Shown here piece after piece: positions 5,040 to 39,024 of a stretch of 64,000 nt of DNA. Source of the DNA: an uncultured delta proteobacterium (GTDB lineage Bacteria > Desulfobacterota > Desulfuromonadia > Desulfuromonadales > BM103); contig CAVQRZ010000001.1 in assembly GCA_963715335.1 (NCBI GenBank), positions 96,001 to 160,000 on the forward strand, in the 5' to 3' direction. Every line of letters begins with the position of its first letter. The first letter of the stretch is position 1. Position numbers and translations under genes: made by a program. The notes beneath the pieces were generated by a model. It was not told the origin of the DNA. It made no database searches and worked only from the letters and a program-made list of their open reading frames with translations.

Positions 5040-6131
5040 TTAAAATGTTCTGATTTCGTTATACAACGTATCTCGTTCCACCGGCTGTTTCCCGGCTTTA
5101 CGAATCAGTTCAACCAGCTGGTCCCTGCTCACCTGCTGGGGCGAATCGGCACCGGCATCGTGGCCAATCTGTTCTTCGACGACAGTGCCGTCGAGATCGT
5201 TGACGCCAAAGGCAAGAGCAACCTGGGCGACTTTCAGCCCCAGCATGACCCAGTAGGCCTTGATGTGCCGGAAATTATCGAGATAGATCCTGCTGATCGC
5301 CAAAGTCTTAAGCGCGTCCACTCCACCAACACCCCCGGCACCAGGCACCCGGGTGTTATCCGGTTGAAACGCCAGAGGGATGAACGCCTGGAAGCCGCCG
5401 GTCCGATCTTGCAGCTCGCGCAGCCGTGCCAGATGGTCGACCCGGTCGGCGAAATTTTCAACATGGCCGAACAGCATGGTGGCATTGGTTTTCAACCCGC
5501 CGTTGTGCACCTGTTCCGTAACCTCGAGCCAACGCTCACCACTGATTTTTTCCGGGCAGATCTGCTTACGCACTGCCGGGGCAAAGATTTCCGCTCCGCC
5601 CCCGGGCATGGAGTCGAGGCCGGCTCTCTTCAGTTCGGCAACGACCTCGGCCGGCGACTGTTGCGTCAGCCGGGCGAAATAGTCAACCTCGACTGCCGTG
5701 AAGGCCTTTATGTGCAGTTGCGGATGGTCCGCCTTCATCGCGGCCAGGACTTCCAGGTAGAAGTCAAAGGGCAGGTCGGGGTGCAACCCCCCGACCATAT
5801 GGATTTCTGTCGCTCCTGCTTCGCTGGCATCGGCGGCACGTGCGAGAATGTCGTTTAAAGCCAGCGTGTAACTACCGTCATCGTGCTCGTTTTCACGGCT
5901 GAACGCGCAGAAAATACATCGATTGACACAGATATTGGTGTAATTGATGTGACGATTGACGTTGAAATAAACCTTGTCGCCGTTAATTTGCCGGTTGGCC
6001 AGGGCCGCCAGTTCGCCGACCGCAAGCAGATCGTCAGACTCGAAAAGCGCCATGGCCTCGTCATCGCAGACGCGGGCCCCGCTTTCGATCTTGGTCCGGA
6101 TATTCTGGAACAAAGTCATCTTTTTATTCAT
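5040..6131 (-). CDS. mqnE: Aminofutalosine synthase (radical SAM)
   Basis: NRHINYTNICVNRCIFCAF, HIKAFTAVE, MPGGGAEIF, HIKAYWVM, DLDGTVVEE..H.AGA. Start is 6131 or 6119. Confidence 0.92.
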   Translation of the reverse strand: MNKKMTLFQNIRTKIESGARVCDDEAMALFESDDLLAVGELAALANRQINGDKVYFNVNRHINYTNICVNRCIFCAFSRENEHDDGSYTLALNDILARAADASEAGATEIHMVGGLHPDLPFDFYLEVLAAMKADHPQLHIKAFTAVEVDYFARLTQQSPAEVVAELKRAGLDSMPGGGAEIFAPAVRKQICPEKISGERWLEVTEQVHNGGLKTNATMLFGHVENFADRVDHLARLRELQDRTGGFQAFIPLAFQPDNTRVPGAGGVGGVDALKTLAISRIYLDNFRHIKAYWVMLGLKVAQVALAFGVNDLDGTVVEEQIGHDAGADSPQQVSRDQLVELIRKAGKQPVERDTLYNEIRTF

Positions 6132-8680: not shown

Positions 8681-8921
8681 TTGATTCCCTTTTCGACATT
8701 TTTTAGTCAGATGCGTCGTTGCATAGCTCAGGGAAGAATTCCATCTGCATTGACCGGTTCTGCCGAAGAGGGCGGCAAATGCCCGAAGAGGACCAACCTG
8801 GTTTTTGCTTTACACAACCCGCCCGTTTTTCATGAAGGAACATGATATAGCCCAGGCCGTTCGAGCCTTCGACTTCTCCCATGCGTGCAAAATTAATCAT
8901 ACCTGTACGGCACAAACAAAG

Positions 8922-8951
8922 AAAGCCCCGGTCATAAATGGCCGGGGCTTT
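8922..8951 (-). terminator. Intrinsic terminator-like hairpin (second copy of the hairpin downstream of nuoN)
   Basis: AAAGCCCCGGTCATAAATGGCCGGGGCTTT. On the minus strand it is followed by TTTCTTTGTTTG. 29/30 identical to 9532-9561. Confidence 0.7.
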
Positions 8952-8985
8952 CAGACTGCTGACAAAGTTCAGTTTTGATGTTTAG

Positions 8986-9524
8986 AAGGGCAGCAGAGGG
9001 TTTATCTGTTGTCCTTGTTCATTTCTACTCTGAAATTCAAAGATAAAACCAAAGCAGAACCCGGGGGTTGCGCCCCCCGACTGCGCCTTACTCTTTTGCT
9101 GGCCCAAAAGAGTAAGCAGAAAAAGGCCTGCGCTGCGCTGGGCATGTCTGGTTCGTCAAGGCGGCAACCTCAATTCGGACCATTCTAACCGATTAAGAGT
9201 CTACACTTCCCCCGCAGGAGCCGAGGCTCTTGAGAGCCTCTCCTGTTCGTGGAGACTTGCGTTGATAGAGGTTGTTTTGGCTTTTCCCTGGTAAATCACA
9301 CGGCAAGGTCAGGCCCTTTGACACAGGGCCGGATCCCCATCACAGCAGGTTCTTGAAGTCACAGACATCCGGCAGAGGAGATGCCCTCCGCAAGGAGAAG
9401 GCACTTTTGCATACTTTTGTTGCCGGACAAAAGTATGGCGTCCGGCGGGACGCGACCCGCCGGTTTTGCTTTTAAGCATTTCAAGAAAAGAGAAAAGGGC
9501 AACAGATGAACCATCTGTTGCCCT
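8986..9524 (+). repeat. Structured multicopy intergenic element, copy 1 (core 9051-9473 plus flanking REP-like palindromes)
   Basis: Near-identical to 31714-32135 and 38548-38970; many perfect hairpins; no credible ORF. Confidence 0.92.
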
Positions 9525-9531
9525 AAGCTGC

Positions 9532-9561
9532 AAAGCCCCGGTCATAAATGACCGGGGCTTT
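9532..9561 (-). terminator. Intrinsic terminator-like hairpin downstream of nuoN
   Basis: AAAGCCCCGGTCAT-AA-ATGACCGGGGCTTT, a perfect inverted repeat about 28 bp past the nuoN stop. Confidence 0.7.
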
Positions 9562-9588
9562 GGAATGATGCGCGAGACGTGCTCGAAG

Positions 9589-11052
9589 CTAGAAGACTGC
9601 GAGTTTCGCCAGCTCCATAACATCACCAGGGATGATCCCGAGGTAGAACACACCGATGATCGCAATCACGATCGAGATGGCGACAGTGGCCGGCATGGAA
9701 ACCCAGGCAAAGTCTTCGGTCGGATCGCGGAAGTACATGTAAACCATGACCCGCAGGTAGTAGTAAAGCGACACGGCCGAGTTAAGCACGCCGATTATGG
9801 CCAGCCAGATATAACCGGCCTTGACTGCACCGGCAAAGATAAAGAACTTGCCGGCAAAACCGGCTGTGGGCGGCAGTCCCATCAGCGAAAAGAGGAAGAT
9901 CGCCATGGCAACGCCGAGGAAAGGTCGCTTGTAACCGAAACCGGAGAAACCTTCCAGCGTCAGGTTATCCTCACCCTTTTTGCCTGCCAGGACCAGGATG
10001 GCAAAAGCACCGATGTTCATGAAGGTGTAAGCCAGCATGTAGAAGAGAATACCCGAGTAGCCGATCTCATTCGCAGCAACCATACCGACCAGTGCGTAGC
10101 CGGCATGCGCTATCGAGGAGTAGGCCAGCATGCGCTTGACGTTGGTCTGGCTGATGGCGATCACATTGCCAATCACCATTGTCAGCACCGCAAGGACCCA
10201 CAACATGGCGGTCCATTCCGGTTTCAGGCTGAAGAAGCAGTATTCCATGATACGCAGAAACGCGGCAAAAGCTGCGGCCTTGGGCCCGGCGCTCATGAAA
10301 GCGGTGATCGGAGTCGGAGCACCCTCGTAGACGTCCGGTGTCCACATGTGAAAAGGCGCAGCCGCAATCTTGAAGAGGAAGCCGATCGAAAGCAGGACCA
10401 GCCCGGCAAGGGTCATCGGATTCTCTAGCAGAGAGCCGTGTGCATTGAGGTAAATGCCGATTTCCGTCAGCTTGGTAGACCCTGTGACGCCGTAGATCAG
10501 CGCCATGCCGTACAGGAGGAAGCCGGTGGAGAACGCCCCGAGCAGGAAGTATTTCAGGCCTGCTTCGTTGGACTTGACCTGGCCACGGAAGAACCCGGCC
10601 AGAACATACAGACAGATTGACATGACTTCCAGACCAAGGAAGATCGTCATCATATCGGTTCCGGAGGCCATCCACATAGCGCCTGCAGTGGCAAACAGGA
10701 TCAGCGGATAGTATTCACTGACGGGGTAACCTTCGCGCGTCAGATAATCGTCTGACATGAGGACCGTCAACCCGGCGGCGAAAAGGAAGGTGATACTGAA
10801 GAACGCGGCATAATTGTCCATCGCGACAGCATCATTGAACCCGTATTGAGGATTCCCCCAGCCAGTTACGACAAAGAATCCCGTGACCACCAGGCCGATC
10901 AGGCTGATCCAGACAGCATGCCGCGTGGTGCCACGCGGCAGGAATACATTGATCAGCAGCAGTCCCATGCCGAAGCAGCTCAGTACGAGAGACGGCAATA
11001 TGGCCGCCATATTGACGTTCTGCAAGGCAATTTGCACCAGGTTGTTATCCAT
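9589..11052 (-). CDS. nuoN: NADH-quinone oxidoreductase subunit N
   Basis: EAGLKYFLLG, FKIAAAPFHMWTPDVYEGAP, KRMLAYSSIAHAGY; last gene of operon. Confidence 0.96.
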   Translation of the reverse strand: MDNNLVQIALQNVNMAAILPSLVLSCFGMGLLLINVFLPRGTTRHAVWISLIGLVVTGFFVVTGWGNPQYGFNDAVAMDNYAAFFSITFLFAAGLTVLMSDDYLTREGYPVSEYYPLILFATAGAMWMASGTDMMTIFLGLEVMSICLYVLAGFFRGQVKSNEAGLKYFLLGAFSTGFLLYGMALIYGVTGSTKLTEIGIYLNAHGSLLENPMTLAGLVLLSIGFLFKIAAAPFHMWTPDVYEGAPTPITAFMSAGPKAAAFAAFLRIMEYCFFSLKPEWTAMLWVLAVLTMVIGNVIAISQTNVKRMLAYSSIAHAGYALVGMVAANEIGYSGILFYMLAYTFMNIGAFAILVLAGKKGEDNLTLEGFSGFGYKRPFLGVAMAIFLFSLMGLPPTAGFAGKFFIFAGAVKAGYIWLAIIGVLNSAVSLYYYLRVMVYMYFRDPTEDFAWVSMPATVAISIVIAIIGVFYLGIIPGDVMELAKLAVF

Positions 11053-23261: not shown

Positions 23262-23741
23262 TTATTCCAGCCGATCCTGGTAAGGCTCGCGGTCGGGGCC
23301 CTGCACCGGATAATCCTTGCGCAACGGGTGGCCTACCCAGTCGTCGGGCATCAGGATCCGCCGCGGGTCAGGATGGTTGTTGAAGGTAATCCCCATCAGG
23401 TCCCAGGTCTCGCGCTCCTGCCAGTTCGCCGTCGCCCAGACCCCACTCACGGTATCAATCCGGGCATCGTTCTCTTCAACCGGAGCCTTGATGCGCAAAC
23501 GGGTGTGTTCGCCGATGTTATAGAGCTGGTAGACCACCATGAAGCGAGGGGCCCGCCCCATGTAATCGACACCGCAGAGATCGGTCAGGAAGTTAAAACC
23601 AAGACCTTCCTTCAGGAAAGCGCAAACAGCGACAATATCCTCTTTCTTGACAACCACGGTGGTCTCGTCACGAAATTCGATGACTTCGAGCACCGTATCG
23701 CCGAACTTGTCCTTCAGTTTGTCAGCAGCCTGTAAACTCAT
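23262..23741 (-). CDS. nuoC: NADH-quinone oxidoreductase subunit C
   Basis: ANWQERETWDLMGI..HPDPRRILMP..GHPLRKDYP. Confidence 0.95.
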   Translation of the reverse strand: MSLQAADKLKDKFGDTVLEVIEFRDETTVVVKKEDIVAVCAFLKEGLGFNFLTDLCGVDYMGRAPRFMVVYQLYNIGEHTRLRIKAPVEENDARIDTVSGVWATANWQERETWDLMGITFNNHPDPRRILMPDDWVGHPLRKDYPVQGPDREPYQDRLE

Positions 23742-31645: not shown

Positions 31646-32186
31646 AACAAACTAAGGGCAACGGGTGGTTAATCTGTTGCCCTTAGTTTGTTGTGCTCTG
31701 GGATTTAAAGACAAAAGCAAAACCCGGGGGTTGCGCCCCCCGACTGCGCCTTACTCTTTTGCTGGCCCAAAAGAGTAAGCAGAAAAAGTCCTGCGCTGCG
31801 CTGGGCATGTCTGGTTCGTCAAGGCGGCAACCTCAATCCGGATGGTTCTTATCGATCAAGAGCCCAGCTTTCCCCCGCAGGAGCCGAGGCTCTTGAGAGC
31901 CTCTCCTGCAGTGGAGACTTGCGTTGATAGAGCTTGTTTTGGCTTTCCCCTGGTAAATCACACGGCAAGGTCAGGCCCTTTGACACAGGGCCGGATCCTT
32001 ATCACAGCAGGTTCTTGAAGTCACAGAAATCCGGCAAAGGAGATGCCCTCCGCAAGGAGAAGGCACTTTTGCATACTTTTGTTGCCGGACAAAAGTATGG
32101 CGTCGGGCGGGACGCGACCCGCCGGTTTTGCTTTTGTCTTTAACTTCCAAAGTCTAATAAAAAGGGCAACGGGTTAACCCGCCTTT
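31646..32186 (+). repeat. Structured multicopy intergenic element, copy 2 (core 31714-32135)
   Basis: Near-identical to copies 1 and 3. Perfect 20-bp inverted repeat 31705-31724 / 32124-32143. Left palindrome extends to a 17-bp stem (31646-31692), likely also terminating hemL. Confidence 0.92.
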
Positions 32187-38212: not shown

Positions 38213-39024
38213 AAAGGGCATCAGATGGTTAATCTGTTGCCCTTTTTCATTGTCTACTGGACTTCAAAGACAAAAGGGTTTTAAGTTCCATGCCTGCCGT
38301 TTGCAAGCGATCTCATCAGCAAGATCCTGCCAACCCATAATGACAGCAGTACGGCGAGGCCCCCTGTAACGGGCCGGCTCGTCTCCTCTGTTGTTCCCGA
38401 AAGCCATATCCCCTTCGCGAACGTCTATAGCCCTCCGCTAGGAGAAGGCACTTTTGCATACTTTTGTTGCCGGACAAAAGTATGGCGTCTGGCGGGACGC
38501 GACCCGCCGGTGTTGGTTTTCACTTTTCGAAATTTACAGACAAAATCAAAGCAGAATCCGGGGGTCGCGCCCCCCGACTGCGCCTTACTCTTTTGCTGGC
38601 CCAAAAGAGTAAGCAGAAAAAGGCCTGCGCTGCGCTGGGCATGTCTGGCTCGGCATGGCGGCAACCTCAATTCGATGGCTCTATTAACCGATAAATGTTT
38701 ACGCTTCCCCCGCAGGAGCCGAGGCTCTTGAGAGCCTCTCCTGCTGTGGAGGCTTGCGTCGGTAGAGATTGTTTTGGCTTTTCCCTGGTAAATCACACAG
38801 CAAGGTCAGGCCCTTTGACACAGGGCCGGATCCCCATCACAGCAGGTTCTTGAAGTCACAGAGATCCGGCAGAGGAGATGCCCTCCGCAAGGAGAAGGCG
38901 TTTTTGCATACTTTTGTTGCCGGACAAAAGTATGGCGTCGGGCGGGACGCGACCCGCCGGTTTTGCTTTTAAGCCTTTCAAGAAAAAGAACAAGGGCAAC
39001 AGATTAACCATCTGTTGCCCTACC
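38213..39024 (+). repeat. Structured multicopy element, composite copy 3 (variant module 38260-38520 plus full core 38548-38970)
   Basis: Full core matches copies 1 and 2. The upstream segment repeats the right-arm module (38431-38510) behind a different core. REP-like palindromes at 38213-38245 and 38992-39023. Confidence 0.92.

Follow-up and report, generated by a model that had tools for sequence, protein, structure and literature searches.

The ~423-bp unit that recurs in the window (the whole 64-kb stretch of DNA analyzed here, G000:C1:96001-160000, from the 3.3 Mb, 43-contig assembly G000) is probably the inner cassette of a selfish repeat that is built in layers, carries no genes and sits behind genes. 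We give this reading a probability of roughly 0.55; it pictures a MITE/BIME-like repeat in terminator regions that is layered and mobilised in trans, and whose cassette can be swapped and is insulated from transcription. Full copies of the core lie on the plus strand at 9051-9473 (copy A, found from the sequence and by blastn), 31714-32135 (copy B) and 38548-38970 (copy C). An additional right end module at 38430-38526 forms the terminus of a shorter, one-ended relative with a different body (38274-38526, plus strand), just upstream of copy C and in the same frame as it. The preliminary description of this DNA had overlooked this fourth right end module and had spoken of a three-copy element. 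Its three sets of coordinates are correct for the window, but the count does not hold for the genome, where a genome-wide blastn search for the core brought up additional copies (104 HSPs and 50 full-length copies at 82-100% identity in G000) and a profile search found 59 near-full copies (those spanning >330 of 422 positions). Pairwise identity among the 50 full-length copies has a median of 89.8%, a minimum of 78.7% and a maximum of 97.1%, and since no pair exceeds 97.1%, there is no sign of a very recent burst.

With a profile of the end module (E ≤ 1e-10), we found 148 end modules in G000, which resolve into 59 head-to-head pairs (mostly 430-440 bp apart), 13 tail-to-tail junctions and 30 solitary modules. 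Besides the cassette there are one-ended relatives of ~250-330 bp, which have other bodies but share the end modules and are placed tail-to-tail (four ~623-bp units) or head-to-head (C10:26352-26891). We had considered a circular permutation for the relatives of the B type and dropped this reading because they are in fact two one-ended units paired tail-to-tail or head-to-head.

The 423 bp that had been taken as the full unit are its core. In most copies, the alignment of copies together with their flanks shows conservation running past both ends, through linkers of ~30 nt (left) and ~22 nt (right), into a 27-bp palindrome on each side with the consensus GGGCAACAGATG-GTT-CATCTGTTGCCC. Beyond this outer palindrome lies a further arm, frequently starting with CAGrCTGCTGACAAAG, and the element measures ~540-640 bp when the outer layers are included. 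At copy A the layers can be followed from the outside inwards, starting on the left with one copy of a 30-nt directly duplicated native terminator hairpin (AAAGCCCCGGTCATAAATGGCCGGGGCTTT, 8922-8951, found in a search for flank repeats). Next comes the outermost arm (8952-8987, plus strand, beginning with CAGACTGCTGACAAAG), which is conserved in the flanks of many copies and whose reverse complement recurs on the opposite side of other copies. It is followed by the left outer palindrome (8988-9014, fold z -3.8), a degenerate copy of the 27-bp consensus with a T-rich tract behind it, and by the left linker (9015-9050, plus strand, ..CTCTGAAATTCAAAGATAAAACC), which moves together with the core in the alignment of copies and flanks. 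On the other side of the core are the right linker (9474-9496, plus strand, AAGCATTTCAAGAAAAGAGAAAA), the right outer palindrome (9497-9523, GGGCAACAGATGAACCATCTGTTGCCC), whose loop is inverted relative to that of the left one, and the right copy of the duplicated terminator hairpin (9532-9561). Elsewhere in the window, outer palindromes lie to the left of copy B (31656-31682) and on the left (38216-38242) and right (38994-39020) of the locus of copy C.

Within the core, two inverted end modules of ~100-130 nt, each with three hairpins, bracket an asymmetric center, so that the architecture is mirror-symmetric for ~130 nt inward from each end and the asymmetric middle spans 200-230 nt. The outermost hairpin, hp1, is GC-rich, its TYGCGY loop is conserved, and it is flanked on the outside by an A/T-rich tract; hp2 has a 12-bp A/T-rich stem; and hp3 has a short stem with a GNNA loop and adjoins an almost invariant GGGCAT. 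In copy A, the left end module (9051-9174, plus strand) consists of an A-rich tract, hp1 (CGGGGG-TTGCGC-CCCCCG), hp2 with its 12-bp stem, a small GC hairpin and GGGCATGTCTG. The center (9175-9351, plus strand), delimited by covariation and helix pairing, holds the hairpin CAGGAG..GAGGCTC-TTGA-GAGCCTC..CTCCTG and weaker helices. The right end module (9352-9473, plus strand) runs from ATGCCC through hp3 (CTCC-GCAA-GGAG), hp2' (CATACTTTTGT..ACAAAAGTATG) and hp1' (CCGGCGGG-ACGCGA-CCCGCCGG) to TTTTGCTTTT. The ~100-nt end module is the conserved building block of a nested palindromic element.

The outer palindromes belong to this nesting. G000 contains 102 of them, 85 of which lie within 80 nt of an end module, and their loops depend on the side: on the left the loop is GGTT in 28 of 34 and AACC in none, and on the right it is AACC in 23 of 27 and GGTT in one. 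Because the loops on the two sides are opposite, the palindromes are inverted repeats and not a direct target duplication, and we ruled out the inner 27-bp palindromes as the duplicated target. The outermost ~10 nt of the core are A/T-rich and variable, which fits a U-tract better than a transposase cleavage site. Two side observations concern these outer layers. At 23717-23732 of the window, GTTTGTCAGCAGCCTG matches the motif of the outermost arm with no core nearby, possibly as a solo outer layer or by chance. Further, the copies at C6:14548, C21:74729, C9:105459 and C29:12192 of G000 lack the GGGCAACAG palindromes and are flanked by hairpins like GGGACACAATGCAATCAAGTATTGTGTCCC, which may represent either another kind of docking palindrome or the REPs that belong to the RAYT genes described below.

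The preliminary description had proposed a series of hairpins, which are all present in the sequence and fold as it had stated; the right end module has an MFE of -47.9 kcal/mol (z -4.5) and none of 200 shuffles folded as well. It had also claimed that the two ends keep the same architecture while their stems differ and stay paired, and this was upheld by the variants of hp1 as well as by covariation. The hp1 stem occurs in at least five kinds (CGGGGG/CCCCCG, GGCGGG/CCCGCC, GTCGGG/CCCGAC, GGCAGT/ACTGCC and GGCGGT/ACCGCC), all of them fully paired around one TYGCGY loop. For covariation we used 63 cassettes from six genomes with a nine-helix structure, and 140 distinct modules from 95 loci; the resulting figures overstate independence, since the sequences share ancestry and one of them supplied the structure. 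Among the cassettes, subject to that limit, 90.3% of the cells are paired, compared with 46-51% when the partners are slid, both-side changes occur in 21 of 63 pairs (12.1 ± 2.0 in shuffles, with 0 of 500 reaching 21), and the covariation score is 0.109 versus 0.057 in shuffles (0 of 500). Among the modules, under the same limit, both-side changes occur in 16 of 24 pairs (reached by 6 of 500 shuffles), the cells with such changes number 293 versus 99.5 in shuffles (0 of 500), and the covariation score is 0.274 versus 0.120. The support is uneven along the cassette: pairing reaches 92-98% in the four terminal helices and in the central GAGGCTC/GAGCCTC helix (helix 4 at 97.5%), but the other three central helices (3, 5 and 6) are only 69-79% paired and covary weakly. 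Even with that limit, so many distinct, fully paired stems are hard to explain without selection for single-strand folding. The hairpins are kept by compensatory changes and so act as folded single strands, of DNA or RNA, rather than as double-stranded motifs.

The element is non-coding, as had been proposed from the first three copies, for stop-free stretches shift frame between copies and open frames are not conserved. A 22-codon frame behind AAGGAG in the right module was ruled out as coding because indels break it in relatives. The element had not been assigned to a named family, and it indeed matches no Rfam family: there was no match in the window at the gathering score, none on the element at E values up to 10, and none for modules in other genomes in a scan at the gathering score. 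Among the multicopy sequences described in Geobacter genome papers (PMC2700814, apart from the supplementary alignments), none matches the element, and a search of the literature on terminator-targeting MITEs gave nothing relevant.

Within the family, 41 of 44 genomes (10 of 11 genera) match the core, the most distant full-length relatives being ~70% identical, and the named records that contain the core are all MAGs labelled Geobacteraceae, Desulfuromonadales or delta proteobacterium. The right module alone (129 nt) reaches much further: at the level of the order, 136 of 233 genomes have a match, typically 80-90% identical, which amounts to 50 of 71 genera and 23 of 27 families. Other families, as seen in their complete genomes, often have the module singly, at one extremity of a repeated unit of ~300 nt that in some cases is arranged in tandem. 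Several right-module matches lie at the very ends of contigs C152, C62 and C58 of G010 (L043-L045). On another contig of that genome (L042, G010:C79), a SAM riboswitch (RF00162, 80.9 bits) at 5654-5776 is 1.4 kb from tandem ~620-bp relatives and unrelated to the element.

The ends of the cassette also carry transcription signals. A consensus scan of 8850-9650 gave six terminator-like sites versus 1.1 ± 1.1 in shuffles, and the GC-rich stem-loop with T-tract that defines an intrinsic terminator was found in hp1' with TTTTGCTTTT, which faces outward on the plus strand, in hp1 with GTTCTGCTTT, which faces outward on the minus strand, and in both outer palindromes, which face inward. Each end of the cassette, read outward, therefore looks like an intrinsic terminator at the level of sequence. 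In the same region the scan found no sigma-70-like promoter, and inspection of the center by eye showed neither a conserved promoter-like block nor sigma-54 spacing. Contigs from four sediment RNA runs (two studies) match 9028-9560 at ≥85% likeness, deepest over the modules, with none over the left flank (8700-8945); these contigs attest presence in the libraries and carry no strand, ends or level, and DNA carry-over is possible. An RNA product, such as the discrete ~400-nt transcript considered in the preliminary description, is thus a possibility and no more.

These observations bear directly on a different reading, in which the repeat is a family of small-RNA genes, each end module being the 3' domain of a ~200-300-nt RNA and the cassette two such genes placed head-to-head with promoters in the center. 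The outward polarity of hairpins and T-tract at both ends, the covarying stems of the module, its conservation across the order, the ~300-nt units of other families with the module always at one end, and the many element contigs in the RNA libraries, with none for the left flank, would all suit such genes. The central promoters that they require were found neither in the scan nor as a conserved block, the central helices are weakly supported, and the asymmetry between G-U and A-C pairs that might name the transcribed strand is weak and rests on small counts. The RNA contigs, for the reasons given above, do not separate transcripts from carried-over DNA, and the mirror-symmetric ends, the tandem arrays, the flips and the presence/absence differences described below are typical of mobile DNA. 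We consider small-RNA genes unlikely, and we keep them under consideration because of the order-wide conservation, the terminator-like polarity and the one-ended units.

By a crude ORF call, the 50 copies lie between convergent ORFs in 27 cases, between tandem ORFs in 18 and between divergent ORFs in two, with three left without a class, and the placement after a gene 3' end that had been noticed for the three copies of the window thus extends to the genome (27 of 47 classifiable copies convergent). In the tandem contexts, the cassette had the same orientation as the genes in seven cases and the opposite orientation in 11 by the same crude call.

Occupied and empty sites were then compared between relatives, and the presence/absence differences that a mobile unit predicts were found. 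Among the 18 comparable cassette loci of G008, four lack the element in G000, where only a hairpin or a short gap is kept; the comparison is unrooted, and gain is told from loss by inference. At L182, G008 has an arm, a palindrome, a linker, the core, a linker, a palindrome and an arm, and G000 (C23:86561-86589) has an arm, one palindrome and an arm. At L186, the layered element of G008 lies between two copies of a 20-nt native terminator with its GATT loop in the same orientation, and the corresponding site of G000 (C29) has that terminator once and nothing else. Copy A offers a second case of this kind: the element is bracketed by two copies of the 30-nt terminator AAAGCCCCGGTCATAAATGRCCGGGGCTTT (8922-8951 and 9532-9561), and in a metagenome relative (L204, flanks 72-84% identical) the same two genes are ~200 bp apart with one terminator and no element. 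A rule that the element duplicates a whole terminator upon insertion rests on these two loci, because a long direct flank repeat (≥14 nt, real-looking, within 260 nt) was found at one of the 49 own copies, namely this 30-nt hairpin. At the ends of the 423-bp core itself, the aligned copies show no short TSD.

The gene context could also mean that the repeat is a terminator or insulator block kept by the host at gene 3' ends, comparable to a BIME, whose palindromes end or stabilize the mRNAs of the neighbors and bind host proteins, with a mobility that is ancient or incidental. The convergent placement of 27 of 47 copies, the inward-facing terminators predicted in the outer palindromes, the occupation of most loci in all three congeners and the order-wide conservation of the module are all in line with this. 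For such a task, however, a simple hairpin suffices, and the neighbors have no need of a 423-bp center or of outward terminators. The four loci without the element in G000 keep only a hairpin or a short gap, the copy-A locus of L204 has just its single native terminator, and the content of the cassette differs between orthologous loci. A block maintained by the host strikes us as doubtful, somewhat more so than the small-RNA genes.

The content of the loci turns over between relatives. In a programmatic check of 20 cassette loci of G008 against G000, five were collinear, eight inverted (flanks collinear, core on the other strand), one swapped, with G000 holding a pair of one-ended relatives in place of the cassette, four without the element, and two not comparable. 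At the inverted loci the flanks align only as far as the outer palindromes, and each linker stays with its own end of the core. G008 has a collinear cassette at both locus A and locus B, and in G007 locus B is occupied as well. Locus C differs in all three congeners, with an inverted cassette in G007 and a pair of one-ended relatives in G008. Among the relatives, then, the cassette may be flipped, exchanged, doubled in tandem or absent while the flanks are unchanged; the flips and swaps were observed between species only. At one locus (L183 2599-3307 on G008:C6, versus C21:21021-21025 of G000), G008 is ~700 bp longer beside a shared cassette, and the right palindrome of G000 is shortened.

Sequence identity adds to this picture. 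At 13 orthologous loci the cassettes are 77.5-92.6% identical. Among the 50 copies of G000, the one at the orthologous locus is never the most similar, with ranks from 2nd to 48th, which a star-like family would in part produce anyway. Within one genome, paralogues are up to 94-97% identical (97.1% in G000), and the flanks are 82-94% identical between genomes. Since pairs at 97% within a genome exist beside flanks at 82-94%, copying or conversion after the split of the species is indicated.

Invertons are segments of DNA between inverted repeats that are found in both orientations, and the ~475-bp segment here likewise lies between inverted repeats, with both orientations found between species. 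It differs from them in that no promoter or invertase was found and that ~59 copies of one segment are present per genome. That a site-specific invertase flips the cassette between the inverted 27-bp palindromes within a population and thereby redirects an internal promoter is improbable: the bounding inverted repeats and the opposite orientation at eight of the 13 loci shared by G000 and G008, with breakpoints at the palindromes and linkers moving with the core, would suit it, but the orientation differs between species only, the promoter was not found and no invertase is linked, ~59 identical switches per genome would be unprecedented, and swaps and absences need more than inversion.

Returning to the layered mobile repeat, we searched for a parent and for a mobilizing enzyme. 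With the end-module profile, no transposase or other ORF bracketed by these ends was found in G000 and 101 loci of relatives, where all module pairs are 120-670 bp apart; the absence of a transposase reported for the window thus extends to this set. The two RAYT-like Y1 transposase genes of G000 encode proteins of 214-216 aa and are associated with a palindrome different from that of the element. They lie at G000:C10:40073-40402 (L172 1240-1884, minus strand) and G000:C9:68347-68679 (L173), and each is flanked by copies of the palindromic repeat GGGGACACTCAAAAGGGACACTCTATTTTGAGTGTCCCC (GGGGACACTC..GAGTGTCCCC), which looks like a classical REP/RAYT pair unrelated to the cassette. Y1_Tnp is found in 32 of the 44 genomes of the family, with no match in G008, G005 and G006, all of which are element-rich (G008 being 96% complete), and G002 has five Y1_Tnp matches and no element match. 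From the different flanking palindromes and the lack of co-distribution, we ruled out the RAYT (Y1) as the mover. Y2_Tnp occurs in 12 of the 44 genomes and in none of G008, G007 and G010, which carry the repeat, and IS91 (Y2 HUH) was ruled out for lack of co-distribution. A derivative of IS200/IS605 (PATE) with a TnpB guide RNA was also ruled out, since the TnpB domain gave zero matches and the end hairpins are inverted and not direct.

For the layered repeat we suggest the following mechanism. Copies would spread and be replaced when DNA is broken and rejoined at hairpin or palindrome structures. Responsible would be either a trans-acting enzyme that recognizes the folded ends or the host, through recombination or template switching at the palindromes. 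The symmetry of the palindromes would permit both orientations, and a donor cassette recombining in either one would cover the flips, swaps, tandem doubling and homogenization. The outward-facing hp1 with its T-tract would stop transcripts leaving the cassette, and the inward-facing outer palindromes with their T-tracts would stop transcripts entering it. With stops in both directions, the element would be insulated and therefore tolerated behind genes. The conservation of the module across the order at 80-90% identity exceeds the need of a purely selfish repeat, and it fits a host or RNA function as well.

A more far-reaching proposal, which we offer tentatively and think rather unlikely, treats the three-hairpin module as the 3' domain of order-wide, self-insulated non-coding units, of which a genome would have up to ~150. 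Their copying, flipping and exchange between fixed palindromic docking sites behind genes would be the work of a process that recognizes hairpins and needs no transposase of a known family, a scattered, gene-less analogue of integron cassette exchange. In integrons, the attC recombination sites are conserved as folded single-strand hairpins, and the cassettes form tandem arrays of variable order. In contrast to those, the cassettes here carry no gene, no integrase was seen, ~60 loci are scattered and do not form one array, and the orientation is not fixed.

The closest comparisons for the layered repeat are with known families of small repeats. Prokaryotic MITEs (Correia/CREE of Neisseria, Chunjie) resemble the cassette in being non-coding, multicopy and mostly intergenic, with foldable inverted ends, variable size and partial copies. 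Chunjie of Geobacter uraniireducens, for example, is reported to measure 178-235 bp, and 38 copies keep their TIRs and DRs beside 57 partial copies (PMC10969869). Our element is small, non-coding and multicopy in the same sense (423 bp, frames not conserved, 50-59 copies). Its terminal inverted repeats extend over ~130 nt as an architecture, conserved as hairpins with differing stems, and presence/absence differences at orthologous sites exist (four of 18 G008 loci and the copy-A locus in L204). A parent IS with the same ends was not found in G000 and the 101 loci of relatives, and in place of a short TSD one of 49 copies has a direct repeat, which is the terminator hairpin. Unlike MITEs, the cassette ends in three-hairpin modules of ~100-130 nt that are kept as structure and not as short sequence TIRs; where a duplication is seen, it affects an entire terminator hairpin of 20-30 nt and is part of the outermost layer; and the element is nested in three layers of which the inner cassette flips and swaps. 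The non-autonomous mobile unit put forward in the preliminary description holds up in its non-coding nature, its structure-conserved ends and its presence/absence, but it is one layer of a nested element and not a simple MITE with short TIRs and short TSDs.

REP/BIME/REPIN repeats are built as mosaics from palindromic units that alternate in orientation and are joined by conserved linkers. They lie extragenically at gene 3' ends, are conserved over a broad taxonomic range and have no internal transposase. The cassette repeat is likewise an extragenic palindromic mosaic at gene 3' ends. It differs from them in being much larger, with a 230-nt unique center, and the RAYT-like genes of G000 are flanked by a different palindrome and are not co-distributed with the element. 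The layering of our element is comparable to that of BOX, RUP and SPRITE of Streptococcus pneumoniae, which cluster and insert into one another, SPRITE carrying a structure like a rho-independent terminator (according to the sections of PMC10969869 on these repeats). Those repeats, however, are from another phylum and unrelated in sequence, and the same sections say nothing of an inner cassette that flips or is swapped between fixed palindromes.

If our reading is true, a large and so far undescribed class of structured repeats is present in Geobacter-type bacteria, and in G000 its 59 cassettes alone sum to ~25 kb. Three features set it apart from usual bacterial repeats: the hairpin structure of the ends is conserved throughout an order, about half of the shared loci have the inner cassette in flipped orientation, and two insertion sites show the duplication of an entire native terminator hairpin. 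The repeats also appear to break the short-read assemblies of Desulfuromonadales MAGs, as seen from the many matches at contig ends. The family is a tractable case for studying non-autonomous elements that lack a recognizable parent and, equally, the supply of terminators or small RNAs to the host. For the organism, the repeat would reshape the terminator regions of dozens of genes, with an orientation and content that differ between close relatives.
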